A stretch of DNA of 64,000 nucleotides from an uncultured Gammaproteobacteria bacterium. GTDB taxonomy: Bacteria; Patescibacteriota; Patescibacteriia; UBA9934. The stretch lies in the NCBI GenBank assembly GCA_964344415.1, contig CAYFMS010000001.1, positions 317,315-381,314 on the forward strand, in the 5' to 3' direction. Shown in pieces: positions 6,014 to 63,060 of the stretch. The notes under the pieces are model-generated. The model ran no database searches and had not been told where the DNA came from. It saw only the letters and a program-made list of their open reading frames with translations. The position numbers and the translations under genes were made by a program. Position 1 is the stretch's first letter, and each line of letters begins with the position of its first letter.

Positions 6014-6481
6014 ATGCAATGTCCCGTATGTGCATACAAATCAACGCGCGTCGTTGACTCTCGAATTGCTCCCGATGGCATGTCAGTACGAAGAAGGAGG
6101 GAGTGCGAGAAAAAGCGGTGCAGATATCGATTTTCAACATCTGAGACTGTTGAGATGCTTGATATTAAAGTGGTGAAACGGGATGGTCGCAGGGAGCCAT
6201 ATATTCGCCAAAAGATTCTTTCTGGACTTTTACATTCACTTCAAAAGCGCTCATACACTGAAAAGCAATTGCAGAAGATGATTCAGGGGATTGAGCGCGA
6301 TATACAAAAAACTCGATTGCCAGAAATAGCTAGTGGACAGATTGGTGAATTGGTAGCGAAGCATTTACGAAAATTCGACAAGGTAGCGTATATACGTTTT
6401 GCCTCTGTTTATTATTCTTTCGAAGATATTGATACATTCGAAAAAGAGCTTGCCAAACTGTCTGAGAAAAAGAAGCGGTAG
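6014..6481 (+). CDS. nrdR: Transcriptional repressor NrdR. The ORF track begins at 5993; the start is moved to the conserved MQCPVC.
   Basis: N-terminal zinc ribbon MQCPVCAYKSTRVVDSR...C..C followed by an ATP-cone. Confidence 0.85.
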   Translation: MQCPVCAYKSTRVVDSRIAPDGMSVRRRRECEKKRCRYRFSTSETVEMLDIKVVKRDGRREPYIRQKILSGLLHSLQKRSYTEKQLQKMIQGIERDIQKTRLPEIASGQIGELVAKHLRKFDKVAYIRFASVYYSFEDIDTFEKELAKLSEKKKR

Positions 6482-6760
6482 CTAGGGTGTAGGGTGTAGG
6501 GTGTAGGGTGCCGTTACGGATTTACGGATAATACTGATATACGGATTTATGTGGAGGTAGAAGAGATTCAGGAGATTGAGGAGATTTTAGGAGCTTCGCG
6601 TCATTCCGGCCTCCGAGCCGGAATCCATCGTAATACGAAAGCGATGGATCCCTACCTGCCGGCAGGCAGGCCGGATCTCCGCCTCGCTCCGTCCGGGATG
6701 ACGACAAGTCCTTGTTTATGAATCATAAACGGAATTATCGTCAACTATTTTCTACTTACT
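6481..6760. repeat. Modular intergenic repeat element, copy A (inverted relative to copies B and D)
   Basis: Contains the (gggtgta)x4 heptamer run and gatatacggatt. gaagagattcaggagattgaggagatt is the reverse complement of the aatctcttcaatctcc module at 24350 and 46625. Also has the gtcattccggc hairpin and the module ggatccctacctgccggcaggcagg...gtccgggatgacgacaagtccttgtttatgaatcataaacgg, which is about 85 % identical to 40375-40465. Confidence 0.7.
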
Positions 6761-6783
6761 ACTTACTGCGCTATACTATCAGC

Positions 6784-8190
6784 ATGGTTTCGAAAGCGAG
6801 GACGAAAATTGTAGCCACGATTGGGCCTGCATCTTCTACCGTCACAATGCTAACCCGCATGATAAAAGCGGGGATGGATGTGGCGCGTCTTAATTTTTCC
6901 CATGGCACATATGATGACCATGAAATGCTCATGAAGCACATTCGAAGCGCGGCTCGAAAGACGGGGGAGCGTGTCACTATTTTGCAAGATTTACAGGGAA
7001 CAAAAATCCGTGTTGGGGTTCTTCCTGATGAAGGCATTGAATTAAAAAAGAACCAGGCAATTGAATTTGAATATAGCGAGAATCCATATGATGGTGACAT
7101 TATTCCAGTCACATATACCTTACTGCATCGCGACGTGAAAAAAGGGCATCGTATTTTTCTCGATGATGGACTCATCGAATTACATGTTATATCGATTCGA
7201 GGAAAAAAAGTGAAGGCAAAGGTTATTCTTGGCGGAACTCTCCTTTCAAACAAGGGAATTAATATTCCAGATTCCGTGCTTACATCAAAATCATTCACGA
7301 AAAAAGACCATGAAGATTTGCTTTTTGGAATGAATCATCATGTTGATTGGATTGCACTTTCTTTTGTAACAGATGTGAATGTTGTGACCGAGGTCAGGAA
7401 AATTATCCAGAACCATGCGAAAAAACATAAACTGCCAGAGCCAAAAATCATGGTAAAGATTGAGCGTAGGGAGGCAGTTGAATCATTTCTGAATTTACTT
7501 GAGGTTGTTGATGGTGTTTTGATTGCTAGGGGGGATTTGGGTATTGAAATACCTTTCGAGGAAGTGCCAATTATTCAAAAGGAATTTGTTGAGATTTGCC
7601 GTGCTGCTGGAAAGCCTGTCATTGTTGCAACACATATGCTCGATTCAATGACGAAAGTCAGGCGCGCAACACGCTCCGAGGTTTCGGATGTTGCAAATGC
7701 TGTTTTTGATCATACAGATGCCGTTATGCTTTCAGCAGAAACGGCGACCGGTGATTTTCCATATGCATCTGTTCAAGTCATGGAAACGGTGATTCGGGAA
7801 GCGGAGGCTTCGCGCATGGACGATATTTCTTTTTATCGCATGCATGAAATTCATTCGCCGGAACTTGCTATTGCACAATCTGTTCATGTCATGGCTGAGA
7901 ATGGACAAATCGACGCCATCGTTACATCGGCGAATTATGGAACAGCGCCACAAAAAATCAATGTATTCAGACCAAATGTGCCTATTTTTATGGCTTGCAA
8001 AGATGAATCGCAGGCGAGGCAGGTTATGATGAAGTCGGGTGTACAGAGTTTCGTACTCGATGACGCACCAGGGAGCTTTGTTCACCGGTCTATGAGCGCT
8101 CTTCGTAGAAAGAAATTAATACAAGCGAAACAAAAAATCGCCTTCGTGATCCGGGGACCAAAAGGCGATCTTCACTTGTCTATTCATTAG
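6784..8190 (+). CDS. pyk: Pyruvate kinase. The start is chosen at MVSKARTKIVATIGP; the ORF track begins at 6712, inside the repeat element.
   Basis: KIVATIGPAS, the MVKIERREAVE motif and overall PK architecture. Confidence 0.9.
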   Translation: MVSKARTKIVATIGPASSTVTMLTRMIKAGMDVARLNFSHGTYDDHEMLMKHIRSAARKTGERVTILQDLQGTKIRVGVLPDEGIELKKNQAIEFEYSENPYDGDIIPVTYTLLHRDVKKGHRIFLDDGLIELHVISIRGKKVKAKVILGGTLLSNKGINIPDSVLTSKSFTKKDHEDLLFGMNHHVDWIALSFVTDVNVVTEVRKIIQNHAKKHKLPEPKIMVKIERREAVESFLNLLEVVDGVLIARGDLGIEIPFEEVPIIQKEFVEICRAAGKPVIVATHMLDSMTKVRRATRSEVSDVANAVFDHTDAVMLSAETATGDFPYASVQVMETVIREAEASRMDDISFYRMHEIHSPELAIAQSVHVMAENGQIDAIVTSANYGTAPQKINVFRPNVPIFMACKDESQARQVMMKSGVQSFVLDDAPGSFVHRSMSALRRKKLIQAKQKIAFVIRGPKGDLHLSIH

Positions 8191-8533
8191 GTCCGAAGAG
8201 TGGAATTGGGAATCGTGATGATTGCTCTTCGACCACATTTTCAACGGTATTTTCAACTTGCTCGCCTAAGAAATTTTGGAATTGTGGTGAGCTGACGACT
8301 CTTTGAAGCACGAATACGAGCGCACCGATAAGGATGACCGACCCGATAAAAATCCCGATGGCTCGAAAAATACCAGAAATAATATCCATACCGGCTTTTT
8401 TAACTGCTCCGGGTGGTTTTAAATATTTACTGCGTTGCTCGATAATTTCGAGGCTTTCACGAATGTCTTGCAATTCGCGTAATATCGCTTTTGTTGTTGA
8501 TGCGCCTTTCGCGCTTCCTCCTACTTGTGGCAT
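8180..8533 (-). CDS. Small membrane protein, hypothetical
   Basis: 117-aa ORF with one TM (GIFIGSVILIGALVFVL). No recognisable family. Confidence 0.4.
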   Translation of the reverse strand: MPQVGGSAKGASTTKAILRELQDIRESLEIIEQRSKYLKPPGAVKKAGMDIISGIFRAIGIFIGSVILIGALVFVLQRVVSSPQFQNFLGEQVENTVENVVEEQSSRFPIPLFGPNE

Positions 8534-8612
8534 ATAAGGACAGTATACATCATGAGAGCATTGACTTGAAGGTATTTTTATGGTATTTCATTGATTGCCT
8601 AAGTGGAGGTAT

Positions 8613-9135
8613 TGTGAACAAACGTGTTCAAATATGCTCAATTACGTGGTGTGACCGAATCGTACATGCAAGGGGGTACTGCTCAACGCATTGCAGGAAA
8701 TGGTATCAAGAGGGTAGGCCGACTGATTGGAATCCTGATCCGCCAAAGGGCCGAAGCATCTGCAGTGTAACGGGCTGTGATTCTTACGTGCACGGTCATG
8801 GATATTGCAGTAAGCACTGGAAGCAGTGGCAGAATCAAAATCGTCCCGAACCCAAAGATTTTCAAGTGTTTCAGCGGCATAGTGGATGTGTGGTGATCGG
8901 TTGCACCGCATCGCATCATGCAAAAGGTTTTTGCAGAATCCATTATAAGAAATGGAAGAGGGGGACGCTTGTGAAGTTGAACGATGCTGATGGCATTTGC
9001 CAGTATCGTGAGAAAGTTGCTTCACGGAAAATCTGTAAATATCCGGGTTGTCAAAAAGAGTGGACCGGGCTCGGCTATTGCTGGGAGCATTTCATACAGT
9101 GGACTCGCGTCGGAGAGCCAGAAATCTGGCCTTAA
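8613..9135 (+). CDS. Protein built from four tandem Cys/His zinc-finger-like repeats (C-x4-C-x6-7-G[YF]C-x2-H-x3-W)
   Basis: GGAGG RBS at 8603 and GTG start at 8613. Repeats are CSITWCDRIVHARGYCSTHCRKW, CSVTGCDSYVHGHGYCSKHWKQW, CVVIGCTASHHAKGFCRIHYKKW and CKYPGCQKEWTGLGYCWEHFIQW. Confidence 0.6.
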
Positions 9136-9136
9136 T

Positions 9137-9895
9137 CTATCGCCGTATGGGCGATTTTTTTCTTGCCAAAGCTCGTTGTTTTTTAAGAGGCTCTTTTTCC
9201 GTCTTGCTCCACTTCTCTGTCGATGAACTGAAAGCGATACTGCTCAAGTCTAGAATATGCATTTTTATGAAATCCTTTGTTTTCTCAGGATAAACATTTC
9301 CGCATTCTCGAAGTGTCCAGCCAACAGCTTTTTGAACATAGGGATTGTCATCATGAAGCCGTGCCTTTATAAGCGGCAGGATTTTCATTACGGACAATAT
9401 CGTTTTTCTGCTATTTGAATAATACAGAAGGCTTGTCAGGGACAGGCGACGCTTCCACGGATTCCTATCCTGATTCCATAATGTAAAAACGGGGTATATT
9501 TCTTTTGGATATGCTTCGAGTAATGTCGCATATATTGAACTTAGCCAATCGCTATGCGCCCAATTATCAATTTTACCGGCCCATGATTTTAGAATACGCC
9601 AGTCGGCAAGGTTCAGGTCTTCTTTTTCAGAAAAAAACCAAAGAGGAATATGTAAAGCTTCAAAATTATTTGAAAACTTCCAAAGGTTAGCCATGATTCT
9701 TCGTAATTCACTTTGTGTGTAATTCCGCTCTAAATCTGTCAAAATTTCACGTGCAATTTTGCGAATGGACGGGATATTGCATCCGAGAATATCAAAAGAT
9801 GTATTCATATATCCAACGCTAAATTCAGCCCGCTTTTTGTCTGAAAACGGTTTCAATCTTTTTAAGATCTTCGTATGCAGATCTTGCGCCTGCAT
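9137..9895 (-). CDS. DNA alkylation repair enzyme (AlkC/AlkD-like HEAT-repeat glycosylase family)
   Basis: HEAT-like repeats and the WNQDRNPWKRRLSLTSL...DDNPYVQKAVGWTLRE motifs typical of the DNA_alkylation family. Confidence 0.7.
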   Translation of the reverse strand: MQAQDLHTKILKRLKPFSDKKRAEFSVGYMNTSFDILGCNIPSIRKIAREILTDLERNYTQSELRRIMANLWKFSNNFEALHIPLWFFSEKEDLNLADWRILKSWAGKIDNWAHSDWLSSIYATLLEAYPKEIYPVFTLWNQDRNPWKRRLSLTSLLYYSNSRKTILSVMKILPLIKARLHDDNPYVQKAVGWTLRECGNVYPEKTKDFIKMHILDLSSIAFSSSTEKWSKTEKEPLKKQRALARKKSPIRR

Positions 9896-9896
9896 A

Positions 9897-10658
9897 TTAG
9901 TCTCGCATGCGCCAGCCGATGCGGAATAAATGAATAACGAGAAGAAGTAATCCAATTCCGGCAGCTGCCAGTCCAATGGCTCCAATAATCAAGTTACTTT
10001 CAGAATAGTCAATCATGGAATAGCGGAGTCCATCTACCATGTAGAAAAATGGATTAACTCGCATAATGATTTGCATGGATTCTGGGAGCATATCGATGCT
10101 ATTGAAAACTCCACCAACATAAATGAGCGGCGTAATCACAAATGTCTGCAAGACCCCCAGATGCTCAAATTTCTTTGCCCAAAGAGCAATAATAAGCCCA
10201 ATCAGCGAGAAAATAACGGAAACGGCGATCACATAGAAGAGGAAGGGGATAAAATGCGCCATCGAAGCCTTGGTAAAGAAAAGAGCCAAGACATAAATAC
10301 CAGTTCCAACAGTCATAGCTCGGATAACCGCTCCGATAACATAACCAAGTACCATTTCCATATACGAAAGAGGGGAGGAAAGAATCTCTTCAATTGTTCT
10401 TCCAAATCGTTGGAAATAAAGTGAGCTTGAGCTCTGGCCATAGGCTCCTTGAACAATATTCATCATTAGAATTCCGGGGAGAACGAAATCGATATAGCTA
10501 ACGCCTTCAAGGAAGTTGATACGCTCACCGATGACGGATCCAAAAATGAAAATATACAGCATTGCGGAAATCCACGGTGAAACAAGTGTTTGAATGGGTA
10601 CGCGTCGAAAACGTTCTGTTTCTCTACGAATCGCGGTTTGTAAACGAATGAGATTCAT
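9897..10658 (-). CDS. ABC-2 type exporter permease. The start is chosen at MNLIRL, overlapping the ATPase stop.
   Basis: Six TM segments and ABC-2 family topology, downstream of the ATPase gene. Confidence 0.75.
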   Translation of the reverse strand: MNLIRLQTAIRRETERFRRVPIQTLVSPWISAMLYIFIFGSVIGERINFLEGVSYIDFVLPGILMMNIVQGAYGQSSSSLYFQRFGRTIEEILSSPLSYMEMVLGYVIGAVIRAMTVGTGIYVLALFFTKASMAHFIPFLFYVIAVSVIFSLIGLIIALWAKKFEHLGVLQTFVITPLIYVGGVFNSIDMLPESMQIIMRVNPFFYMVDGLRYSMIDYSESNLIIGAIGLAAAGIGLLLLVIHLFRIGWRMRD

Positions 10659-10659
10659 A

Positions 10660-11373
10660 TTATTTCTTTTTCGTAATTTCAAGATATTTGCGTTCCAAGT
10701 CTCCGCTTTTTTGCAATTCTCCATCCTGAATTTCGGTATGGATAATCCCTTCATGCAAAATAGCAACACGTGAGCAGAGCATCTGAACCTCTTCAAGATA
10801 ATGCGATGTCAGGATAATTGTCTTGCCATTTGAATGTAATTCGCGGAGAAAATCCCATAATTGATGACGTTGCTCGACGTCAATTCCTGCCGTTGGCTCA
10901 TCAAGGATAAGTAAGTCCGGGTCATGAATCATGGCTCTTGCAAGTGTTGCGCGACGTTTTAATCCTCCGGATAGAGCATTAAATGGTTTTTTACGATGAT
11001 CTTGTAATTCAAAGCGGTTTAGAACTTCTTCAAGGCGCTCTTTGCGCTCCTGCCTATTTAGACCGAAATACCCCGCAACATAATCAAGACTACTCTCAAG
11101 CGGTGCGAAATAATCCATATTAAAATCTTGCGGTGACAATCCGATTGCTGATCGCGTTTCTTGATAGTCATCTTTTACATCTTTTTCGAATACTTTTATC
11201 GATCCTTCGGTATATACTCCAATACCTGTGATGCAATGAATGGTTGTGCTTTTTCCAGCTCCATTTTGACCAAGCAAGCCAAAGAATTCTCCCTTTGGAA
11301 TTGTTAAATTTATTCCCTTTAACACCTCGGTTTCCCCGTAGTTTTTACGTAAATCTTTTATTTCTAGTGCATT
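10660..11373 (-). CDS. ABC transporter ATP-binding protein. The start is chosen at MNALEIKDL; the ORF track runs to 11457.
   Basis: Walker [10 protein letters not shown], signature [12 protein letters not shown] and Walker B LILDEPT. Confidence 0.9.
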
Positions 11374-11486: not shown

Positions 11487-11563
11487 GGGCTGGTAGTTCA
11501 ATTGGTTAGAGCACCGCCCTGTCACGGCGGAAGTTGCGGGTTCGAGTCCCGTCCAGCCCGCCA
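11487..11563 (+). tRNA. tRNA-Asp (anticodon GTC) with encoded CCA
   Basis: Acceptor GGGCTGG/CCAGCCC, anticodon loop CTGTCAC, T-arm GGGTTCGAGTCCC. Confidence 0.85.
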
Positions 11564-11688
11564 CCGAGCTCAGCTCGGTTTCGTCCAGGGTGACGTGAAA
11601 GCTCAGCTTTCACTGTAGACGAAATCTCGACAAGCTGAGTGAAGGTGATCCAGCTTAGCTGGACATCTCGAGATGAGTTCGGTGGTGC

Positions 11689-11716
11689 AAAAAAGATCCT
11701 TTTGGGATCTTTTTTG
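11689..11716 (+). terminator. Rho-independent terminator after tRNA-Asp
   Basis: aagatcc-tttt-gggatctt hairpin followed by TTTTTT. Confidence 0.7.
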
Positions 11717-11730
11717 ATACACTTAATCAC

Positions 11731-12003
11731 ATGTATTTTGTTTATGTCTTAATAAGTATAAAGGATCGGAAGCTATACATAGGCTATGCGGCCGATTTAG
11801 AAAAACGTATCAAAAGGCATAATAGTGGCTATGTCACAGCTACGAAAAATCGATTGCCATTAGAACTGATTTATTACGAAGCTTATAAAACTTCAGTTGA
11901 AGCTAAGCGTCGAGAAAAATATTTAAAGGGCGGAAACGGCAGGGCTCAGTTAAAAATCCAAATCAATGAAATGCTCAAGCATTACAAGTACAATTATTTG
12001 TAG
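11731..12003 (+). CDS. Stand-alone GIY-YIG nuclease domain protein
   Basis: YFVYVLIS...KLYIGYAADLEKRIKRHN...LIYYEAY...KYLKGGNG. Confidence 0.8.
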   Translation: MYFVYVLISIKDRKLYIGYAADLEKRIKRHNSGYVTATKNRLPLELIYYEAYKTSVEAKRREKYLKGGNGRAQLKIQINEMLKHYKYNYL

Positions 12004-17690: not shown

Positions 17691-17870
17691 TTTGTCTCCA
17701 ATGCGTATATTTCAACGCAAGAATGTACTGTTTCAACGCTAACCACCGTGGTTTGCGAAGGGTAAAAAGTAGCACAAAAAACCCATTTTGTCAATGCCTT
17801 TAAGTCCGACTAAAAAATTCTCATATAAGTGTCGATCGGTACTTATATGGATAATATGGCTAAAAATAAA

Positions 17871-19839: not shown

Positions 19840-20220
19840 ATGGTGGACCTGGGGAGAATTGAACTCCCGTCTGGTCAGTGCTCGACCAAGAATGTTTTAC
19901 AAGTATATCTTACCTATATACATCTACCGATAAAGGCAAGAGAAAGACGATAGATGTTTCCGCGCAAACCTTTGACATTCACTCGCGGGGCATGAATGAC
20001 GCATCCTGCTATATATAACACCCAGATCGCTTTTGCGCAGGATCAAAAGCTAGGATGGCACTGCACAGTGTTAGGCAGTTGCGAATGCAGGTAGATTCAT
20101 TCGAATCAACCCACGTGAAGAGTTGTTTGCATGTATCTTCTTGTATGTGTTTTTACTGAGAACATACGGCTCAGACTTGGTTCTTGGAAGGTGCTGCTGC
20201 CATCGATTCCTGGCAGGCCC
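19840..20220 (-). ncRNA. ssrA: tmRNA (ssrA)
   Basis: 5' GGGCCUG pairs with 3' CAGGUCC-A-CCA and carries the tRNA-Ala G3·U70 wobble. T-arm is GGGAGUUCAAUUCUCCC. 5' region GGGGCCUGCCAGGAAUCGAUGG resembles the E. coli GGGGCUGAUUCUGGAUUCGACGGG. Lies directly downstream of smpB. Candidate tag ORF is GCA AAC AAC... TAA, giving ANNSSRGLIRMNLPAFATA. Confidence 0.75.
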
Positions 20221-24094: not shown

Positions 24095-24180
24095 CTTTCG
24101 GGTATGTCGTACGAAGCTATTGCAGCGCCTCCTCCTCGCTACAATGTGCGGAATATGACATACCCGAAAGGGCGTTTTTT
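24095..24180 (+). terminator. Long inverted repeat plus T9 run after the PDZ-protein gene
   Basis: gccctttcgggtatgtc ... gacatacccgaaagggc followed by ttttttttt. Confidence 0.55.
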
Positions 24181-24480
24181 TTTGCCGCTTGTGAGCTTGC
24201 GCTCTTGCATCTCCATGCTCCGCTCCTCGACAACGTACCTTTCAGTACGTCTTACTTCGGTGCTCGCATGTCAAAGCAATAGCATCAAGCTCACTTCGCG
24301 ACCCCATTTGAAATCCTGAGCCTGTCGAAGGATCTCTCAAATTGCGATGAGAATCTCTTCAATCTCCCAAATCTCTTCTATATCCTTTTGCACTTCTCTA
24401 TGTGCTATTTTCTACTAACTACTTACTTCGTAGCCGTCAATCCGTATATCCATACCATCTGTACATTCGTAATTATTTAC
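24175..24480. repeat. Modular intergenic repeat element, copy B
   Basis: Modules present are ttttttt-gccgcttgtgag, caacgtacctttcagtacg, gcgaccccatttgaaatcc, aatctcttcaatctcccaaatctcttctat and ccgtatatcc. Confidence 0.7.
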
Positions 24481-26063: not shown

Positions 26064-27584
26064 ATGAAGAACTTGTTTTTCGTCCTTCTCACGGTTTTTG
26101 CCGTGAGTGGCTGCGCCGAATGGGCGCCGCTCGAGGACATTCGATTCACTGATCGTGGTGATTCGGATACGGATACCGATGCGGATTCGGATGCAGACAC
26201 GGACACGGATACTGACGCAGACTCCGATACGGACACCGACACCGATACCGACGCAGACAGCGATACGGACACGGATACGGATACCGATGCGGATTCGGAT
26301 GCAGACACGGACACGGATACTGACGCAGACTCCGATACGGACACCGACACCGATACCGACGCAGACAGCGATACGGACACGGATACGGATACCGATGCGG
26401 ATTCGGATGCAGACACGGACACGGATACTGACGCAGACTCCGATACGGATACCGACACCGATACCGATGTGTCTCCTGACGCAGATGGCGACGGGTGGAC
26501 TGTCGATGCAGGTGACTGCAACGATAACCCCGTCTTCGGTTACTGGTACAATCCTGATCAGGAAGAGAGCTGTGGCGATGCCCAGGACTACAACTGTGAT
26601 GGGCACGACGATCCGCTTGCCGGGTGTGTCGAATGCTACTGGGATTCGGATGGTGACGGATACGGATCCTCCACCTCGTACGAGATGGAGGAATGTGATG
26701 GTCACTACTACGTGACTGTCGACGGAGATTGTGAGATCTTCGATGATAATTCCTATCCGGGTGCTGACGAAGACTGTGATGGCATCGACAATGACTGCGA
26801 TGGTGACATCGACGAAGGTTGCCTGATTTCGCCACCCGACAATGACAACGACGGTTACGATGTGTACAACGATTGTGACGACACCGACCCCTACCGGAAT
26901 CCTGGTGAGGACGAGGTATACGACATTCGTGACAACGACTGCGACGGAGTTCAGGACAATGTCCCCAACCAGGGGCATCGTGCTCTCTCCCGCTGGTACA
27001 AGATTCACGGCTACCAGAACCTCGACATCGACGGTGACGGTACTACGGGTCTGTACGAGGACATCGAGCATCGCTTCTCGGCAACTTCGCCGGGCAGTGG
27101 ATGGTACCAGGATGCCACCGAGCTCCTGACGTACCCGCTCGACATCTGCTCGAGCGGGTACGGTCCTTCGGACACTTGTATCGTCCGCAGCAATGGCGAG
27201 GTCGAGCTCTGGGGCGGGTACGTTCTCGTGCCACTCTACGAGTGCTACCGCGTCGACACCACCGGACTCCACACCACGGAGTACCACCCGCAGAACAGTG
27301 CGGGCTACATGGCGGCATCGAGTTGTGCATTCTCGCCAGTCGGTCTGGTTGTTCCCACGGGGACGAGTACCTCAATCGATCAGCAGGATTTGCTTCCGTA
27401 CTATCTTCATGCGTCGGCGCCGTATTACGGTGTCAGTGAGGTCGAGGGTGCTTCCGGCTACAATGCTGGCGACATCATGTACTCGGACCTCTGGGATGAA
27501 GGAGACGGAACGGGTCCGGGTGGATCCTACACGTACCACCAGACGGCCTGGTTCGCACTCAATCCGGACGATACTACCTACTGA
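26064..27584 (+). CDS. Lipoprotein with a (D-T/A/S)n acidic tandem-repeat region and MopE-type Cys-rich putative metal-binding motifs (GC-rich island)
   Basis: GGAAGGAG RBS and lipobox-like FAVSGC. About 110 aa of [10 protein letters not shown] repeats. DGDGYGS...CDDTDP...[22 protein letters not shown] matches the Cu-binding_MopE-type motif pattern. Confidence 0.7.
26170..26490 (+). repeat. Near-perfect 108-bp tandem repeat, about 3 copies, inside the CDS, encoding the DTD repeats
   Basis: gataccgatgcggattcggatgcagacacggacacggatactgacgcagactcc... recurs with a 108-nt period. Confidence 0.8.
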
Positions 27585-46771: not shown

Positions 46772-47362
46772 ATGAAATGGAAAGTAATGTTGATCATCCT
46801 GTACGTGTCAGTACAATTTGGATGTGTTCCTAATGAGGAGTATGCGCAGGAATACATGGAGGAACATGAAGGAGTCACGTATTTTGGTCTGCTCGCGGAT
46901 GCGGACCTGAAAGAGACAATTCGGCTTCTCGATCACAGGAATGACTATCTGTCATTCAGTTTGTTCGAAGAGCCGCGAGATATGCGCAGTCGTCGGCGCA
47001 TGACGGTTGGGGCATGCCTCGACATCTCCATCCGCATCGACACACTCGTTGGTGAGAAGGCCGTATTTGCGGATGAATGCGTCCTGTTTGAAAATCAGGT
47101 CGTCAACAAGGACGGGGAGCTGTCGATTACTCAAGTCGTGAGTCTGGTCCATCTCGTGTACAACGGGGACTTGAATCGTGATGAATCGCAACTTGACGTC
47201 GAGGTGCTGGTATACGGAGGATGGCATGGAACTGTCGTCCTGCATCGATGTGACGAATATCGATGTCCAGACGAAATCAGTCATTTGGAAGAGTCGGAGG
47301 ATGACGAGGAACAAGACTCAGAATCCGAAAGCGTAGCATACGCTGACACTGATTCACACTGA
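46772..47362 (+). CDS. Putative lipoprotein, hypothetical. The ORF track's 46256 start lies in the repeat element; the start is moved to the ATG with a GGGAGGTG RBS.
   Basis: MKWKVMLIILYVSVQFGC lipobox and an acidic C-terminus. Confidence 0.5.
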   Translation: MKWKVMLIILYVSVQFGCVPNEEYAQEYMEEHEGVTYFGLLADADLKETIRLLDHRNDYLSFSLFEEPRDMRSRRRMTVGACLDISIRIDTLVGEKAVFADECVLFENQVVNKDGELSITQVVSLVHLVYNGDLNRDESQLDVEVLVYGGWHGTVVLHRCDEYRCPDEISHLEESEDDEEQDSESESVAYADTDSH

Positions 47363-52889: not shown

Positions 52890-52962
52890 GTTCCCTCCTT
52901 GCCTGTTTAATACCATGTTTTGCTATAAATGTCAATCCAAAAACTCACGGATCTCACGCCAT

Positions 52963-53111
52963 TAAGTCCGACCTAAATTAGCCATTCTAAGTCCGACTTA
53001 AAAACATGTTCATTGACTATTATCCCGAAAAATCTGAATGTATATTACTTTTGTACTCTGAATCATGAAAATTAAGTCCGACTTAATTCATGCTATTTAA
53101 GTCGGACTTAA
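52963..53111. promoter_or_regulatory. Four copies of a 15-bp 7-N-7 palindrome TTAAGTC-N-GACTTAA (putative dimeric transcription-factor operator) in a divergent intergenic region
   Basis: Copies at 52963-52977, 52986-53000, 53072-53086 and 53097-53111, the last two perfect. Site 4 overlaps the -35 region of the probable TGcTATACT extended -10 promoter of the 53140 gene. Confidence 0.6.
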
Positions 53112-53139
53112 AATCTATACATGCTATACTTCCAGCAAG

Positions 53140-56892: not shown

Positions 56893-57025
56893 TTGAATAT
56901 ATCAAGAGATAGTTAGGGAACGAGCCCATTGATCTGTCCGCAACCTGCCATTGGTAAGGTGCGAATTCTCGCCCAAAGGGAAAGATAAATTTTAACCACT
57001 CTTTTCCCGGAGTGGATTTTCATTT
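56893..57025 (+). promoter_or_regulatory. SAM-I (S-box) riboswitch with terminator expression platform upstream of metK
   Basis: aUAUCAAGAG..AGGGA..GAGCCCaUUGA..CGCAACC..GGUGCGAAUUCuC..GGAAAGAUaAA matches the S-box consensus blocks. This is followed by ccactc-ttttcccg-gagtgg then attttcattt (terminator). Confidence 0.7.
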
Positions 57026-57027
57026 CT

Positions 57028-57981
57028 ATGAATCAAGAATATTTTACGGCCGAGTCCGTGACGATTGGTCATCCAGACCGTATGTGCGATCAATTTTCAG
57101 ATGCTATTTTAGCGGCATATGTTGCTCAAGATCCAAATGCGCGTGTTGCGGTCGAATGCATGGGAGGGCATGGGAAAGTGTGGGTATGCGGGGAAGTGAC
57201 CTCGAATGCAGAGATTAATATCCCGTCCATTATTCAAAAAACATATCGAGACATTGGTTATAAAGATGAATTGCAAATTGAGGTTCATTTGGTGAAACAG
57301 TCGCCGGATATTGCACGCTGCGTTGATACGGGCGGGGCGGGGGATCAGGGGATTGTGATTGGGTACGCTTGCGATGAAACGCCTGAATTTTTACCGTTAG
57401 AGGCTGCACTTGCTCATCGTTTGACGGATGCGCTCACCGAGGCTCGGGTTTCGGGGCGATTGCCTTATTTGGGTCCAGATGGAAAATCGCAGGTGACGGT
57501 GAATCCTGCGACGGGTCATGTGAAGGCGATTGTTTTGAGCGCGCAGCATGATGCGAGTGTTTCGATTGATCGGGTACGTGCGGATCTTCGCGAGCTTTGT
57601 TTCTCTGTCATCCCGGGCTTGCATGTCCGCTGTAGCTCGCAGAGCGAAAGCGGGACCCGGGATCCAGCGTATTTCATTTCTGAAGATACACAATTCTTCC
57701 TCAATCCCGCCGGTCCATTCATTCAAGGAGGATTCGAGGCAGATACCGGCCTTACGGGCCGAAAGCTTGTTGTAGATTTTTACGGTCCGCGCGTACCAAT
57801 TGGCGGTGGAACAACGCACGGAAAAGACATGACAAAAACCGACCGATCAGGCGCCATGAAAGCAAGAGAAAAAGCGATTGAGATTTTGCAGGAAAAAGGC
57901 GCAAAAGAGGTGACTGTTGTGTATAGCTATGCGATTGGAATTGCGGGTCCGATTGATGAGAGGGTGGTGGTGAATATATAA
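57028..57981 (+). CDS. metK: S-adenosylmethionine synthetase (short, 317 aa; canonical motifs retained)
   Basis: GHPDRMCDQFSDAIL, GAGDQG and GGGTTHGKDMTKTDRSGA. Preceded by the SAM-I riboswitch. Confidence 0.8.
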   Translation: MNQEYFTAESVTIGHPDRMCDQFSDAILAAYVAQDPNARVAVECMGGHGKVWVCGEVTSNAEINIPSIIQKTYRDIGYKDELQIEVHLVKQSPDIARCVDTGGAGDQGIVIGYACDETPEFLPLEAALAHRLTDALTEARVSGRLPYLGPDGKSQVTVNPATGHVKAIVLSAQHDASVSIDRVRADLRELCFSVIPGLHVRCSSQSESGTRDPAYFISEDTQFFLNPAGPFIQGGFEADTGLTGRKLVVDFYGPRVPIGGGTTHGKDMTKTDRSGAMKAREKAIEILQEKGAKEVTVVYSYAIGIAGPIDERVVVNI

Positions 57982-58054: not shown

Positions 58055-59503
58055 ATGAATCAAAATTATCTACTTGTCGAAGAGATTGCTGATGAATTGC
58101 GAGTTAGCAATATGACCGTTTATCGCTATATAAAATCCGGATCACTTCCTGCATATAAGCTTGGAAAAGAGTATCGTATCAAATCAGACGATTTTATAAG
58201 TTTTATGAAAGATGCTCGTACAGTTGGGCAACTTAAATTTATAGATTTGTTTGCCGGATTGGGCGGAACCCGAATAGGATTTGAACAAGCCTGTGTGGAT
58301 CTAGGAATTGAGGCGAAATGCGTTTTTACTTCTGAGATAAAGCCACATGCTGTCGATGCGTATTCAACCAATTTTATCGGTGAGAAGATTTCTGGTGATA
58401 TTACTAAGATCGATTATACTACCTTGCCTGACTTTGATTACCTGTTAGGAGGATTTCCTTGTCAGCCATTTAGCTCTGCCGGTAAAAGGCTGGGTTTTTT
58501 TGATACAAGAGGTACACTTTTTTTTAATATAGAAGAAATATTGCGTGTAAAAAAGCCGGTAGGATTTTTGCTGGAAAACGTTGAAGGGTTGGCTAATCAT
58601 AACCAAGGCAAGACATTACAAGTTATTATAAGTAATTTGTCGGCTCTAGGATATCATACGTCCTGGCGTGTCCTGGACGCAAAAAATCATGGAGTCCCGC
58701 AATCAAGGCGCAGAACCTATATTGTGGGACGGAGAGACTCATCGGTAAATATAAATCAGGCGAACTTCAAGAAGAGGTGTCCTAGAATGAAAGATATTCT
58801 TGAAGATGGGTTGGAGGTTATGAATACAGACTTTACTAAAAAATTACTTCATCACTATTCAGTGTCTGATGTTATTGGGAAATCTATCAAGGATAAGAGG
58901 GGTGGTCCGAGTAATATCCATAGCTGGGATATACATTTAAAGGGGCGTGTCAGTAATGTTCAGAAAAAAATTCTCAATAAGCTTTTACGAGAAAGGCGCA
59001 AGAAGCATTGGGCGGAAAAGAAAGGGATTAAATGGATGGATGGAATGCCACTTACGCTCAACGAGATCCTGACGTTTATTGATTGTAAAAAAGATTTACT
59101 TCAATTGCATCTCGATGATCTTGTTGTAAAGGGATACTTACGACTTGAGTATCCAAAGAAGGTAGTTGAGCAGAAGAATGGAATACAAAAGCGAGAATAC
59201 GATACAGAAAAAGAAAGAGGATATAATATAGTCGCTGGGAAATTAAGTTTCGAAATTAGCAAGATACTGCACCCGGAAGGTATTGCGCCTACACTTGTAG
59301 CTACGGACTCAACAAAGTTGGCTGTGCCCGATGGGTGTGGCGTGCGACGTCTTACTGTGAGAGAGGGACTTCGTTTGTTTGGATTCCCTGAAGATTACAA
59401 GCTAGAGGTCTCATATAGTAAGGCATTTGACTTGCTTGGAAATACCGTAGTGGTGCCGGTTATAAAGGATGTGGCTTCCGTCTTACTTAATTCAGGCAGG
59501 TAG
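58055..59503 (+). CDS. DNA (cytosine-5)-methyltransferase with an N-terminal excisionase/MerR-like HTH
   Basis: HTH LRVSNMTVYRYIKSGSLPAYK. Motif I DLFAGLGG, motif IV GGFPCQPFS, ENV, QSRRRTYIVG and GNTVVVPV. Confidence 0.85.
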   Translation: MNQNYLLVEEIADELRVSNMTVYRYIKSGSLPAYKLGKEYRIKSDDFISFMKDARTVGQLKFIDLFAGLGGTRIGFEQACVDLGIEAKCVFTSEIKPHAVDAYSTNFIGEKISGDITKIDYTTLPDFDYLLGGFPCQPFSSAGKRLGFFDTRGTLFFNIEEILRVKKPVGFLLENVEGLANHNQGKTLQVIISNLSALGYHTSWRVLDAKNHGVPQSRRRTYIVGRRDSSVNINQANFKKRCPRMKDILEDGLEVMNTDFTKKLLHHYSVSDVIGKSIKDKRGGPSNIHSWDIHLKGRVSNVQKKILNKLLRERRKKHWAEKKGIKWMDGMPLTLNEILTFIDCKKDLLQLHLDDLVVKGYLRLEYPKKVVEQKNGIQKREYDTEKERGYNIVAGKLSFEISKILHPEGIAPTLVATDSTKLAVPDGCGVRRLTVREGLRLFGFPEDYKLEVSYSKAFDLLGNTVVVPVIKDVASVLLNSGR

Positions 59504-60268
59504 TTACAGGACTCTCCCTGTCCACTCTTTGTAATTTTCTGATACGATACTAAACCAAGTGTCTGAGTCTATTTCATCTGACAAATGACTATAATTCTGT
59601 ATTACTTTTTCCAGTGCTAAAACAAAATCTTTTCTTTGTGCAAAAGGCTTGAACTTTGAATTATCAGAAAACCACGAAGCCGGTCTAATATTGATGATCT
59701 TTCCTTGCTTCCTCTGAACCTTTAGTGGAAGGTTATTGCTGGGACAACAGAGTTCCCATACTTTTTTGAGCCAAAGATTTCGAATTTTGATGGTTGAGTT
59801 TGTGAGCTCGTATGCGAATATAAGGTAGTCTGAATCTAGTTTATATGCCTCATGCATCAAGGTTCTGGCATAGGCGTCAAAATTGGCGATGTCAAAGTTA
59901 GCCGATGCGGTGTGGTCGAATGCTTTGACTTCAAGTAAATCCTCGTGGTCACTGATCGACAGGAAGAAATCAGGTGCTTCTTGACTATTGGGATTTGGCC
60001 TATGGTATATCTTATGTTTCACCATCCAATTTTTTAGCCATTCTTCAAGGATGTTGCCCATCGCACTTTTTTCGTTCATTTTGAAGCGGACATCCAAGAG
60101 CTTCATCTGAATCACGCCTTCAGCGCCAATGATTCCTTGAGAAAGAAGTTCGGAATAGATTGAGTTGGCGCGCATACTGATATTCATATTAACTAAATGA
60201 ATCTTACACATAAAAGATGTCAATTGCAAAGAAGTTGGTGCAATATAGGGGTATATGATTATATGCAA
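59504..60268 (-). CDS. Putative type II restriction endonuclease, convergent partner of the methyltransferase. Start uncertain; M20, M28 and M32 are alternatives.
   Basis: Convergent and adjacent to the C5-methyltransferase. ISDHEDLLEVKAF resembles a PD-(D/E)xK core. Confidence 0.45.
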   Translation of the reverse strand: MHIIIYPYIAPTSLQLTSFMCKIHLVNMNISMRANSIYSELLSQGIIGAEGVIQMKLLDVRFKMNEKSAMGNILEEWLKNWMVKHKIYHRPNPNSQEAPDFFLSISDHEDLLEVKAFDHTASANFDIANFDAYARTLMHEAYKLDSDYLIFAYELTNSTIKIRNLWLKKVWELCCPSNNLPLKVQRKQGKIINIRPASWFSDNSKFKPFAQRKDFVLALEKVIQNYSHLSDEIDSDTWFSIVSENYKEWTGRVL

Positions 60269-60308
60269 TCATTGGCGTCTAAGCTCTGGTCGGGTAAGGT
60301 TGTAGAGT

Positions 60309-60983
60309 ATGAGGTTCTCGAAGCGATATTATAGACTATTTCTAACATATGAAGATTGGGTAGATTTACTCAAAAAATCACTATTAAAACGTGCTTATAA
60401 ATCTGGGATTGGAATTAATATTTTGATATCTGATAAAGATGTCTTTAAGGCATTTCGGGATTCATATTGCAAGGAATTATCTTGTAAGAGCACAGACTTT
60501 GCTGAATGCTTTTTAGCTTTTGAATCTCTGTATAAATTTTATGACGAAGATGTAGAGATAGGCTTTGAGGCTAAATCAAGTTTTAAACTAAATGAATCAG
60601 TTATTGATGATTTGGATGCACTCTTTTCATTTTGTAGAAAGGATACTGATGTAGATGCCATTGTGAGGCATCCGAATGGTGTGGTTCGAGATTTTCAGTT
60701 TAAAAGTTTTGTAGAATCGCCCGATAAACTGACATCAGAGAATCTAGCTGAGTATATCTGCGAAAAGGTAAGCGGTGGATACTTGCGTGTAAATTGGCTC
60801 GTTAATCTAGTGGTGCATGGTGGAAGTACGGATGAGGTCGATTTTGGTGAGTTGAGTAGATTGATCAAGAACTACTTGTCAGGAAAGAGAGAAGTCTTAA
60901 TTATTTTTAATGAGAATAATGAGTTTAATACCATGATAAGGGTGTATCCAGATTTGGCTATGCTTCGTGTCGAGAGGTCTTGA
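60309..60983 (+). CDS. Hypothetical protein adjacent to the R-M pair
   Basis: 224-aa ORF, no family recognised. Confidence 0.45.
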   Translation: MRFSKRYYRLFLTYEDWVDLLKKSLLKRAYKSGIGINILISDKDVFKAFRDSYCKELSCKSTDFAECFLAFESLYKFYDEDVEIGFEAKSSFKLNESVIDDLDALFSFCRKDTDVDAIVRHPNGVVRDFQFKSFVESPDKLTSENLAEYICEKVSGGYLRVNWLVNLVVHGGSTDEVDFGELSRLIKNYLSGKREVLIIFNENNEFNTMIRVYPDLAMLRVERS

Positions 60984-60999
60984 CACTCCCACCAAAAAA

Positions 61000-61460
61000 T
61001 AGTAATATCTTGGCAGTTGAATAACCGTAGAAAACGGGTTGCTGATTCTTTCGGCGCTGGATACCGGATCAAGTCCGGTATGACGAGTGGCGATGATGAA
61101 GCATAAGTCCCGTCGAGGTAATACAGTTCGATTATCAAGGGATCCCGGATCGGGGTCCGGGATGACGAATTGAATATACATCTCTCGGTTTCAACACCGG
61201 GATTTATTTTTTGACAGAATGACTGTTTCTGATCCAGAAACCAAGGAGTTCTGTCATCCGTCCGTAGCTCGAAGAGCGAAGGCGGACACTCCTATCAATT
61301 CACCAAATCATTCTGCACTGGATCCCAGATCGGGGTCTGGGATGACGAAGTGGAGCGAAGGCGGATATCCCATTTAATTCAAACGTATTGATTGCGCTGG
61401 ATTCCCTGCCTGCCGGCAGGCAGGCGGCTCGTGGGCCGGAATGACAATGCAAGAGATGCA
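61000..61460. repeat. Modular intergenic repeat element, composite copy E
   Basis: Two copies of ggatccc(a/g)gatcggggtc(c/t)gggatgacgaa, then attccctgcctgccggcaggcagg and gggccggaatgacaatg. Confidence 0.6.
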
Positions 61461-61471
61461 AATGACTCTTT

Positions 61472-61993
61472 ATGGCAAAAACTCGAGAGCAAAAACAGCA
61501 AATCGTGGCCGGTCTTACGGACAAGTTCCAAAATATGACATCGGCAACATTCGCTGAAGTATCGGGGCTTACCATGTCTCAGTCGGACGAACTCCGTCAG
61601 AAAGCAAGAGAATCAGGAGCTGAAGTCTTCATTGCGAAGAAAACGCTTCTGAAACTAGCGATTGAAGGTGCGAAGATCGAAAATATCGATCCGAAGCAGC
61701 TCAATGGTTCCGTCATTACGGCGATTGCTGACGACGAAGTGGGAGCGGCGAAGTTGATCAAGGACTTTTCGAAGGACTATGAATCACTTACCATTCTTGC
61801 TGGAGTCCTTGAAGGCAAGGGAATTAGTGCCGAAGAGGTGAATCAGCTTGCGGCTCTTCCTGGAAAGGAACAGCTACTTGGACAATTGGTTGGTACATTG
61901 AATGCTCCTATTTCAGGATTTGCAAATGCGCTTGCCGGTAATATCCGAGGTCTTGTGACCGTTTTAGGTCAAATTCAAGAACAAAAAGCTTAG
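61472..61993 (+). CDS. rplJ: 50S ribosomal protein L10
   Basis: MAKTREQKQQIVAGLTDKFQ...AEVFIAKKTLLKLA. Confidence 0.9.
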   Translation: MAKTREQKQQIVAGLTDKFQNMTSATFAEVSGLTMSQSDELRQKARESGAEVFIAKKTLLKLAIEGAKIENIDPKQLNGSVITAIADDEVGAAKLIKDFSKDYESLTILAGVLEGKGISAEEVNQLAALPGKEQLLGQLVGTLNAPISGFANALAGNIRGLVTVLGQIQEQKA

Positions 61994-61999
61994 ACGTTC

Positions 62000-62110
62000 T
62001 ATTCGGTCCATTTTCGGCTCACGGGTCCCTTGTTTCTTCTCAACGTACGTTTTAGTACGTCTGCGAATAAACATTTCCGTTCACCAAAACTGAATCCAAA
62101 TATATCCGTC
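62000..62110. repeat. Intergenic repeat fragment, copy F, between rplJ and rplL
   Basis: ctcacgggtcccttgtttcttctcaacgtacgttttagtacg is highly similar to 62668-62722. Confidence 0.55.
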
Positions 62111-62195
62111 TATAAGACAAGTATTCACTATCTAAAAATAATGTTAAATGCGTTCCATAACATTTGAACACGTTTAACAATTTAAACATACATAT

Positions 62196-62651
62196 ATGTC
62201 AGAAGAAACAAAAACAGCGGAAGCTGTAGAGGAAACTGTGGCTGCAGAAGCTACGGAAACAAAGGTAGAGGTTCCTGCAAAGTTTGAAAAGCTTGTTGCA
62301 GAAATCGAACAGATGTCTGTGATCGACCTTTCAGAGCTTGTGAAAGTTTTGGAAGATAAGTTCGGAGTAAGCGCTGCCGCGCCTGCAATGATGATGGCTG
62401 CGCCAGCTGGTGGAGCTGCTGAAGGTGGAGCGGAAGAAAAGTCTTCATTTGATGTAGAGCTTACAGCTGCTGGAGATTCAAAGATTAACGTGATTAAGGC
62501 TGTTCGAACCATCACTGGTGAAGGTTTGAAGGAAGCAAAGGGTCAGGTTGATTCAGCTCCAACGGTTATCAAGGAAGGTGTTTCTAAGGAAGAAGCAGAG
62601 GAATTGAAGAAGACGCTTGAGGAAGCTGGAGCTACAGTTACTCTAAAATAA
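62196..62651 (+). CDS. rplL: 50S ribosomal protein L7/L12 with an acidic N-terminal extension of about 22 aa
   Basis: [24 protein letters not shown]...[52 protein letters not shown]. Confidence 0.9.
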
Positions 62652-62654
62652 AGA

Positions 62655-62790
62655 TTCCAGAATCAGACCATCTGCGTTGTTACGGGTCCCGTCGGTCTTC
62701 ATCATCGTACGTTTCAGTACGACTCTTCGACCGCCACCCGTGCCTAGCATCTGATCCAATTCTGAAACTTTATTGGCAGAATGCCTAGAA
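62655..62790. repeat. Intergenic repeat fragment, copy G, after rplL
   Basis: gttacgggtcccgtcggtcttcatcatcgtacgtttcagtacg. Confidence 0.55.
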
Positions 62791-62829
62791 AAAGCCCCGA
62801 TTGGGGCTTTTTCTGTTACCAACAAACTA

Positions 62830-63060
62830 AGGCCGTCAGGCCTCGAGTACCCCGCAGAAGCCCCTGTCATTCCCGCGAAAGCGGGAATCCACCGATTGTC
62901 GAAATACAGGGGATCCTCCGCCTTTGCTCTTCCCCCTTCGCTCGGCTAGCCGAGCGAAGGGGGACATGCCGAGCTTCGGCGGACAGGCGGGGCGGATCAA
63001 GTCTGGGATAACGAATGGTGTGTGTATTGAGACAGGGGGCAAGCAGCACTTGAAATATAA
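62830..63060. repeat. Intergenic palindromic repeat cluster, copy H
   Basis: gtcattcccgcgaaagcgggaatcc hairpin, cgctcggctagccgagcg hairpin, and gtctgggataacgaatgg. Confidence 0.5.

Follow-up and report, generated by a model that had tools for sequence, protein, structure and literature searches.

Mosaics of at least three hairpin repeat families at gene ends in a Patescibacteria-like genome, with an apparently undescribed interspersed hairpin among them

The BIMEs of Escherichia coli and the NIMEs of Neisseria are mosaic clusters of short repeats, present in both orientations and located mostly at the 3' ends of genes. REPINs are doublets of REP sequences that form long hairpins and are mobilised by RAYT, a domesticated Y1 transposase; the ERIC or IRU elements are imperfect palindromes of 127 bp; and the Rickettsia palindromic elements (RPE) are palindromic repeats inserted in frame in protein genes. 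The NTS/dRS3/SRM hairpins are bound and cut by Ssn in Neisseria and Wolbachia (PMC11893778). SsnA, a single-domain GIY-YIG protein of 94 aa, binds and cuts NTS solely as single-stranded DNA, and Patescibacteria are not mentioned in the paper (Nat Commun 2025, PMC11893778). Genes of the Ssn clade (CDD cd10448) usually have SRM units on their flanks. Here we analysed a stretch of 64,000 nucleotides (the window; contig CAYFMS010000001.1 of assembly GCA_964344415.1, positions 317,315 to 381,314 of the forward strand), whose intergenic spaces are filled with repeats. We show that the intergenic modules are not one family: they belong to at least three unrelated, co-localising hairpin repeat families, named here H, a hairpin of ~130 nt, G, short units of apparent NTS/SRM type, and S, modules seen only in the window.

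Self-BLASTN and a repeat finder were run on the window, and seven intergenic regions were also read by eye. A preliminary description had seen in these regions a single modular family resembling MITE or REP/BIME-like elements. The repeats are present where it had placed them, all seven intergenic clusters being recovered by reading, self-BLASTN and the repeat finder, and their abundance is far above chance in the comparison with shuffled sequences. Self-BLASTN pairs 6655-6746 with 40376-40467 (90% over 92 nt, E=6e-29), 24343-24387 with 46616-46660 (89% identical) and, in inverted orientation, 6511-6586 with 46703-46625 (83.5% over 79 nt, E=1e-12). The inversion of the shared modules in the copy after nrdR is therefore correct for the S modules, as the repeat finder also shows. 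The idea of one family does not survive, since H, G and S differ in distribution: H is found across phyla, G falls into a published class and S was found only in the window. The supposedly separate modules 'T-run+gtcgcttgtgag', 'catcgtacgtttcagtacg' and 'gcgacc' are the left outer stem, the apex and the right outer stem of one H hairpin, and 'ggatccctgccggcaggcagg' and 'gtccgggatgac' are parts of short oriented G palindromes. Nor is the make-up of the clusters shared, the pre-rplJ cluster consisting of G units only and the rplJ-rplL spacer of H only.

The repeats are not an assembly artefact, because independent assemblies agree and orthologous copies exist in another metagenome-assembled genome (MAG). 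The window sequence is also part of the 768-kb ENA metagenome contig ERZ930061 k127_100043, assemblies from three other runs are 99.8-100% identical to it in the rplJ-rplL region, and orthologous H copies are present in the MAG CAYWYQ (contig L021). Two Logan contigs stop within the large compound G unit after rplL (Table 1), in the middle of its perfect palindrome. The repeats are not confined to the window either, copies occurring in other genomes. As for the host, window proteins are syntenic to and 50-65% identical with those of an Uhrbacteria genome (L042), and their best named homologs come from Patescibacteria. The nearest MAGs (CAYWYQ and CAYIQM) are titled 'uncultured Gammaproteobacteria'; judging from these protein matches, the titles are probably wrong. 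Since the proteins resemble those of Uhrbacteria and Patescibacteria despite the record titles, we treat the host as Patescibacteria-like and any list of phyla as provisional.

The intergenic spaces are BIME/NIME-like mosaics, not MITE. They contain non-coding, hairpin-forming, multi-copy elements in mosaic clusters at gene ends, gained and lost between related genomes, which upholds the REP/BIME-like part of the earlier interpretation. The MITE part, according to which all modules would be one family derived from a DNA transposon, agrees with elements that are short, non-coding, multi-copy, palindromic and intergenic. It is nevertheless very improbable: terminal inverted repeats with direct target-site duplications are missing, the flanks of H being inverted complements; the modules are distributed separately, H across phyla and S in the window only; and no related transposase was found in the window, the search for a cognate one having covered the window and the fetched loci.

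H is a single imperfect hairpin (110-140 nt across loci) with five copies in the window, all on the plus strand by their apex. We call plus-form the strand carrying TCAnCGTAC... and R its complement; the left end is the hairpin end beside CGATCTG on the plus-form. There are five occurrences of the 23-nt apex pattern TCAnCGTACGTTyyAGTACGnCT in the window, all on the plus strand, against 0.00 expected (100 shuffles). MAFFT and RNAalifold applied to all 36 copies gave the apex only, as indels misalign the arms; hence we relied on a subfamily alignment and a covariance model, the search that the preliminary description had proposed. A first model (R1) was built from 16 copies and a second (R2) was run with filters off; from the window R2 recovered exactly five copies of H, which score 82-95 bits, and the match ranked after them reaches 22 bits. 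Copy 1 sits after the PDZ-protein gene and after a hairpin with a T10 run; copies 4 and 5 have orthologs in CAYWYQ at L021 775-906 (93% identical) and 1425-1554.

On R, the apex GAG-nCGTAC-TGAAAC-GTACGn-TGAG is conserved, as is the base GATGAGAT ... CAGATCG; the middle stems covary and the outermost stem is locus-specific. The consensus on the better-folding strand reads ...aanTnGATGAGAT-(stem)-...-GAGnCGTACTGAAACGTACGnTGAG-...-(stem)-AGnTCGC...TT.... Across 46 distinct aligned copies, 90.5% of cells are standard pairs, against 59.5% in shuffled and 34-43% with slid partners, and 31 of the 35 pairs show compensatory double changes; these figures, like the G·U and A·C counts below, come from related copies in an alignment fitted to a model built on R and are thus generous, with a wide margin. 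Some copies have another apex sequence in which pairing is kept, such as CGTAGC-GAAA-GCTACG in L024. The outermost 8-19 bp are locus-specific yet self-complementary, and since the left arm is often coding sequence, the right arm presumably derives from the left. The MAG CAYIQM holds five H copies with a near-identical core and different self-complementary flanks, which points to recent spread.

Rfam 15 gave no match to H, either for the window at the gathering threshold or for two window and two L010 copies at E<=10; at E<=10 the matches were chance miRNA-type hairpins, none on the window H copies. A full-text literature search with the H apex, on either strand and as DNA or RNA, found no paper in the library searched, and searches on GIY-YIG with hairpin repeats, Patescibacteria with GIY-YIG, and CPR with REP returned nothing describing these elements. 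Two candidate motifs were rejected: a kink-turn at the conserved base, where inspection by hand showed the bulge and the tandem G·A to be two Watson-Crick pairs apart, and a hammerhead suggested by GATGAG, for which there is no CUGA or GAAA core. With no Rfam match or prior description found, H appears to be a previously undescribed interspersed hairpin repeat.

The two strands of H are not equivalent. Under RNA parameters R is the more stable strand in 36/37 copies, at a mean of -60.9 kcal/mol against -48.7; under DNA parameters this holds for 35/37 (-29.3 against -24.9). Two kinds of internal loop are conserved, 2x2 and 3x3: the plus-form has UC/UC and UCA/CUC there, and R has GA/GA and GAG/UGA, that is, tandem G·A mismatches. 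Two wobble positions are conserved on R (U·G in 33/45 copies and G·U in 41/46), and the remaining pairs comprise 63 G·U against 28 A·C, with some bias from a model built on R. Because of the tandem G·A mismatches, the conserved wobbles, the excess of G·U over A·C and the better folding, R is the selected folded strand, as RNA or as single-stranded DNA.

The position of H relative to genes is also polar. Taking crude stop-to-stop open reading frames (ORFs) of at least 100 codons, we found the left end between -17 and +13 nt from the stop codon of the gene reading into H in 30 of 63 copies; the right end falls in the same range in seven. The outer stem reaches into the last codons of the ORF in 21 copies. 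The left end lies 0-4 nt from the end of a tRNA or transfer-messenger RNA (tmRNA) in nine loci: in six, R is directly (3-4 nt) upstream of the tRNA 5' end and co-oriented with it, and in three H overlaps the tRNA 3' end, tail to tail. Beside protein genes, R is antisense to both neighbours in ~70% of contexts. Of 43 informative loci, 32 have the plus-form on the G-rich strand, a bias confounded with gene orientation. At L022 4796-5326 (MAG CAYIQM), where H is directly upstream of a tmRNA, the ARAGORN tmRNA call runs into the H hairpin.

A hairpin of this kind, directly 3' of ORFs, imperfect, ~130 nt long, with a structure kept while its stem sequence varies and with the strand antisense to the ORF folding better, recalls the attC recombination sites of integron-type cassettes. 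We consider that identity extremely improbable. The RYYYAAC/GTTRRRY core is absent, the flanks being A-runs, T-runs or other sequences; the neighbours are housekeeping genes (rplJ, rplL, nusA, nrdR, ftsZ, tRNAs), not cassette arrays; no integrase or recombinase family recurs nearby; and the conserved apex of H is unlike the variable terminal structure of attC.

The same data bear on another reading, in which H is a host-selected RNA structure, acting as a bidirectional terminator or insulator, as a protector of mRNA 3' ends at stop codons or, on the R strand, as a tRNA 5' leader, and is present in many copies because it functions at many genes. The strong covariation of the stems would fit this, as would the stems that start at or over stop codons, the co-oriented R strands just ahead of tRNAs, and the tandem G·A loops and conserved wobbles, which are typical of protein-binding RNA. 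In many copies the core is also preceded by an A-run and followed by a T-run, the arrangement of bidirectional terminators, and orthologous sites retain H although the stem sequences differ (L014/L028; window/L021). Against it, R is antisense to both neighbours in most protein-gene contexts and so would not be part of their mRNAs, the copies at 24180 and 46497 already lie downstream of terminator-like hairpins with T-runs, the window copies have no A/T runs, and H has no Rfam family. Moreover, its patchy occurrence among phyla, the near-identical cores in CAYIQM and the presence or absence of copies at orthologous sites fit spread better than an ancient function. On balance we judge the host-RNA explanation, the main rival for H, unlikely.

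We assessed the distribution of H by scanning one genome per GTDB species and the JGI metagenomes with the apex pattern. This gave 32 loci among the species-representative genomes and 24 further loci in the metagenomes, where by our own estimate a 40-bit pattern over ~1.2e12 positions would match about once by chance. Nearly all matches are full-length H by the covariance model, with the apex atop a 110-140-nt hairpin, and more than 60 further copies outside the window were retrieved from this search. The record titles, which are provisional as phylum assignments and apparently wrong in some cases, name Uhrbacteria, Saccharibacteria, Peribacteria, 'Patescibacteria group', Omnitrophota, Acidobacteriota, Terriglobia, Deltaproteobacteria, Bdellovibrionales and several 'uncultured Gammaproteobacteria'. 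Viral contigs gave no H apex match; in the plasmid collection there was no match to H, and two short 33-nt matches were all that was found for G.

Syntenic loci, reached through the GIY-YIG protein described below and through the H pattern, revealed how the spacers change. Between nrdR and pyk, the window has a ~290-nt mosaic, (TAGGGTG)4-S2-S1-G-G-tail (6482-6770), where CAYWYQ has 17 nt (L041 2046-2062) and CAYIQM a single H (L016 7392-7523). Conversely, between ftsZ and nrdR the window has 31 nt and CAYWYQ 509 nt, the latter with H, TAGGGTG runs, TTAGC repeats and two G units. The H copies between rplJ and rplL and after rplL are common to the window and CAYWYQ, and the syntenic loci L014 and L028 have H at the same site with quite different stems. 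Since orthologous spacers differ among these MAGs, gene ends are recurrent landing or retention sites, with a content that changes over the time separating these genomes.

G units are the GGATCC…GGGATGAC modules, of which the 64 kb hold ~13, in five intergenic clusters and at one coding site. Their design, CGTCATyCC-stem-loop-stem-GGrATCC, is also present in CAYWYQ. Six are simple (CGTCAT, an 8-bp stem, a 4-6-nt loop and ATCC) and seven are compound, with a CCTGCCGGCAGG palindrome and a AGCGAAGGCGGA block inside an enlarged loop; two head-out doublets span 6599-6703 and 40324-40424. The published consensus of the Neisseria NTS is CGTCATTCCCGCGMAVGCGGGAATCYRG, and that of related hairpins from other phyla is the SRM pattern HGTCWYN(0-2)YYVSBRHN(0-5)WNVSBRGN(0-2)RNCYNB (PMC11893778). 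The window has two strict SRM matches, against 0.2 in shuffles (50 shuffles); the enlarged loops of the compound units keep them from matching the strict pattern. By these likenesses, G units belong to the NTS/SRM class and are further members of it, in a host group that the paper does not mention.

Within metK there is one compound G unit, in frame, for which self-BLASTN gives 85% identity to the intergenic 40221-40274. It forms a 16-aa insertion relative to the aligned PDB MetK 5h9u. The closest MetK (75% identical; contig L080) has at the same codons (VIPGLTRDP) the simple unit GTCATCCCGGGTCTGACCCGGGATCC, at L080 1964-1991; the window unit is 33 nt longer, and more distant MetK proteins do not have the segment. 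The unit being simple in L080, expanded in the window and absent farther out, it has inserted into coding sequence and later grown by nesting in its loop, which indicates that G has been mobile. Upstream of metK is a SAM-I riboswitch (56896-56991).

The relative's contig L080 also bears on which enzyme handles G. Within its positions 1-600 there is a 143-aa IS200-like Y1_Tnp ORF (110-541, PF01797), flanked on both sides and in the same orientation by GGAAACCCCG...CGGGGA(G)GATG hairpins. G might thus be classical REPs mobilised by a Y1 (HUH) transposase of the RAYT or IS200 type, and not substrates of an Ssn-type GIY-YIG nuclease: the flanking hairpins resemble reversed G units, and the head-out doublets are REPIN-like. 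This view appears rather doubtful to us. No Y1_Tnp homolog was detected by tBLASTN in the window or the other fetched loci, the head of G is CGTCAT as in NTS/SRM and not the GTAG of REPs, and the hairpins of L080 differ from canonical G in both head and tail and may be the IS200's own ends. A single-domain GIY-YIG gene, moreover, is present in the window itself.

This gene encodes a 90-aa protein whose named homologs come from Uhrbacteria, Collierbacteria, Levybacteria and other Patescibacteria. Compared with SsnA, whose motif positions are Y6, Y17 and E64 (PMC11893778), its Tyr-Tyr spacing is equal (11 residues) and its distance to Glu is 45 vs 47. In most Patescibacteria-type loci examined, such a 90-aa GIY-YIG gene is found ~120-320 nt downstream of a tRNA or tmRNA, behind conserved hairpins (window 11487-12003; L041 5758-6273; L042, L043, L050, L051, L057, L071, L074, L076 and L078). 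The leader starts with CCGAGCTSAGCTCGG directly after the tRNA CCA end in three divergent genomes, its hairpins with AGC-TYA-GCT loops covary, and an Rfam scan at E<=10 gave no match to it. In L050, the cassette interrupts a tRNA-Glu, and 35 nt of the 5' half of this tRNA are duplicated (1564-1598 and 1892-1926). From its sequence context, the GIY-YIG gene with its leader looks like a minimal mobile cassette targeting tRNA genes.

H and this gene can be neighbours. Three independent contigs among the 24 metagenome contigs fetched by the H pattern (L050/L064, L051 and L057) have the GIY-YIG gene 90-215 nt from H, and L041 shows the order H-tRNA-Asp-GIY-YIG, with the gene within 90-250 nt of H. 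Two other possibilities were discarded: a CBS-domain protein ~0.45-3 kb from H, the sole cluster among neighbouring ORFs, was dismissed, and an autonomous H was rejected, as the paired H copies of L024, L008 and L030 enclose ORFs that are ordinary genes. We infer that the 90-aa GIY-YIG protein is the leading candidate for a trans-acting partner of H, of G or of both. Going further, H could be the DNA or RNA substrate of an uncharacterised single-strand-specific enzyme, most plausibly the Patescibacteria-type 90-aa GIY-YIG protein on its tRNA-flank cassette; this would make a second hairpin/nuclease pair, parallel to NTS/Ssn but distinct in structure, that has spread between phyla and whose outer stem is built from the 3' end of a host gene. 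We put this forward tentatively, as a proposal with a low probability of being right in full.

For the repeats as a whole, the explanation that accounts best for the data, and that we hold to be somewhat probable, is that they are non-autonomous elements handled as single strands and inserting at gene ends. The mosaics would arise by repeated, nested insertion and decay of three or more unrelated hairpin repeats at gene ends. H would be handled as a single strand, with DNA or RNA as the active nucleic acid, and would land beside gene ends with fixed polarity; its stem would then grow into the local flank, by copying or by selection, until a stop codon or a tRNA is met. The growth could proceed by templated palindrome extension through intrastrand template switching, or through selection for pairing. 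Compound G units would form by nested insertion into the hairpin loop.

Several observations weigh against these proposals. R is on the C-rich strand in 74% of copies, and so not on the lagging-strand template of the single-strand elements of IS200/IS605 type. No presence/absence polymorphism was seen between four samples of the population, so that there is no fresh insertion junction. That H persists at orthologous sites while its stems change in a compensatory way is compatible with a selected host function as well, and the provisional phyla and the generous pairing counts given above reduce the weight of spread and covariation. As regards the enzyme, no gene family recurring beside H was accepted in the 32 genome loci and none is tied to H; six of seven GIY-YIG loci fetched independently are without H, one having it; and H and GIY-YIG may be adjacent only because both favour tRNA flanks. 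The nearest solved structures of the window protein are UPF0213 proteins, and its gene is flanked not by canonical SRM units but by other hairpins (..AGC-TYA-GCT..) and one degenerate G-like half-site.

The mosaics contain further pieces. S1 and S2 were seen only in the window, neither being found in the fetched loci. TAGGGTG-like runs occur in the ftsZ-nrdR mosaic of the relative (L041 ~1209-1235 and ~1312-1340). S1, S2 and the TAGGGTG repeats are lineage-specific fillers. The ctacttactacttac block of the tail module (6745-6767) resembles 24405-24427, and a ctacttac block and a GTTTATGAATCATAAAC palindrome are separate pieces again.

Table 1. Positions of the repeat units and of the GIY-YIG gene in the window
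Feature	Positions	Strand	Remarks
H copy 1	24180-24308	plus-form +, R strand -	outer stem gccgcttgtgag / ctcac..gcgac; R1 60 bits, R2 82.6 bits
H copy 2	40024-40153	+	begins 1 nt after stop codon of ORF 39682-40023; R1 82.6 bits, R2 94.9 bits
H copy 3	46497-46627	+	starts at T-run of terminator-like hairpin 46478-46494; R2 85.6 bits
H copy 4	61987-62118	+	rplJ-rplL spacer; outer stem overlaps rplJ stop codon by 6 nt
H copy 5	62646-62778	+	after rplL; rplL stop TAA (62649-62651) paired in stem base
G simple	6599-6626	+	CGTCATTCCGGC-CTCCGA-GCCGGAATCC, NTS/SRM-like
G compound	6646-6703	-	CCTGCCGGCAGG palindrome and AGCGAGGCGGA block in loop; head-out doublet with 6599-6626 and linker hairpin 6625-6647
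Degenerate G-like hairpin	40155-40180	-	gaaatcccaaa cttg atttgggatcc; holds the 'tttgaaatcc' module of the preliminary description
G compound	40195-40275	-	
G simple	40324-40350	+	CGTCATCCTGAA-CTAGA-TTCAGGATCC
G compound	40371-40424	-	within 92-nt repeat 40376-40467, 90% identical to 6655-6746
G compound in metK ORF (57028-57981)	57607-57665	+	in frame, encodes VIPGLHVRCSSQSESGTRDP
G simple	61059-61085	-	
G simple	61139-61167	-	strict match to published SRM pattern
Atypical G-like unit	61253-61292	+	GAGCGAAGGCGGA block, repeated at 61274-61302 and 61353-61381
G simple	61319-61347	-	93% identical to 61140-61169
G compound	61399-61445	-	holds 20-nt perfect palindrome CCTGCCTGCCGGCAGGCAGG
G unit TGTCATTCCCGCGAAAGCGGGAATCCAC	62865-62892	+	26/28 positions of Neisseria NTS consensus; strict SRM match
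Large compound G	62911-63013	-	includes perfect 34-nt palindrome 62931-62964; Logan assemblies break at 62960
(TAGGGTG)x4 tandem repeat	6483-6510	+	directly after nrdR stop codon
S2 module (..aatccgtatatcc..ctgtacat..; 'ccgtatatcc...'), inverted copy	6511-6557	-	direct copies 24439-24472, 46657-46703
S1 module (aatctcttcaatctcc...), inverted copy	6558-6586	-	direct copies 24343-24387, 46616-46660
Tail module	6704-6767	+	palindrome GTTTATGA-A-TCATAAAC (6714-6730; second copy 40435-40451), then ctacttactacttac block
90-aa single-domain GIY-YIG nuclease ORF	11731-12003	+	167 nt downstream of tRNA-Asp (11487-11563); Pfam PF01541 E=4e-16

The window has other features. ATTAAGTCCGAC...TAAGTCGGACTTAAAA palindromes, a family unrelated to H or G, are present in two copies 110 nt apart at 52961-53113 and in a third, inverted copy at 17799-17830. 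A CRISPR locus (41209-44505) has arrays of three repeats (41209-41397) and six repeats (43852-44254), the repeats being 36-37 nt long (..CTCCCGAAGGAGGGG..) with a period of 71-72 nt. Between the arrays, on the minus strand, are a Cas1-like ORF (43095-43799, Pfam E=3e-25) and a 429-aa ORF (41732-43021), for which neither Pfam nor PDB gave a relative and which could encode a compact effector; a leader-like segment of 297 nt is duplicated at the locus (41352-41648 and 44209-44505, 93% identical). Periods of 18 and 12 nt make up a tandem repeat at 26128-26523, with 17 overlapping 144-nt copies and two blocks 99-100% identical; the region around it (24-28 kb) is rich in GC (54-55%) and has long, overlapping ORFs on the two strands. 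Directly upstream of the G-rich pre-rplJ cluster, a DNA methylase carrying an HTH domain (58055-59503) and, on the minus strand, an endonuclease of NgoBV type (59504-60268) form a restriction-modification pair. rplL is followed by a 2378-aa protein with Big_5 repeats (L001 11023-18159), not by rpoB. A one-piece tmRNA at 19841-20220 (Rfam, 86 bits) was missed by ARAGORN.

Genomes of the candidate phyla radiation (CPR) are usually called streamlined, whereas in this one hairpin repeats take up several hundred bases between essential genes (nrdR-pyk, rplJ-rplL and after rplL) and turn over from one sister genome to the next. With the G units, the Ssn/NTS system appears to extend to a Patescibacteria-like genome, where one unit is tolerated in frame in metK. 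H lends itself to tests of a specific mechanism through its strand asymmetry, its fixed polarity and its stems, which take in stop codons and abut tRNA ends; a cognate enzyme, if there is one, would be a further single-strand nuclease specific for both sequence and structure, and a possible tool. H also matters for annotation, through assembly breaks, spurious ORFs (e.g. 46256-47362) and the distorted tmRNA boundaries in L022.

How do these repeats compare with the systems described so far? With NTS/dRS3/SRM (PMC11893778), the G units share the oriented design of a CGTCAT head, an 8-bp stem, a short loop and an ATCC tail, as well as their multi-copy occurrence in clusters around genes, and the genome has a single-domain GIY-YIG gene of similar size (90 aa here, 94 aa for SsnA). 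They differ in that many are compound or form head-out doublets and one is in frame in metK, in the Patescibacteria-like host, and in a local GIY-YIG gene that is not flanked by canonical SRM units. The clusters of the window resemble BIMEs and NIMEs in being mosaic, in both orientations and at gene 3' ends, with a composition that varies between related genomes; the constituents are different, namely an SRM-type hairpin, the much longer H and simple tandem repeats. Like the RPE, a palindromic unit sits in frame in a conserved gene, metK, without disrupting it, although the sequence family is another and a single coding insertion was seen. From REP/RAYT, whose repeats are imperfect palindromes of 20-40 nt with a GTAG-type head, both G and H are set apart, as neither has such a head, GTAG occurring solely within the TAGGGTG tandem repeats, and no RAYT was found in the window and fetched loci. 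H shares with attC a conserved hairpin structure directly after ORFs, with the bottom strand as the folded one, and lacks its core sites, integrase and cassette arrays. Like REPINs and ERIC, H is interspersed, intergenic and strand-asymmetric, an imperfect hairpin of ~130 nt that is probably handled single-stranded. In REPINs, however, the REP arms are conserved, whereas in H it is the apex and base that are conserved while the middle and outer stems covary; and H, unlike REPINs, is found across several phyla, with a locus-specific outer stem that often includes the stop codon of its neighbour.

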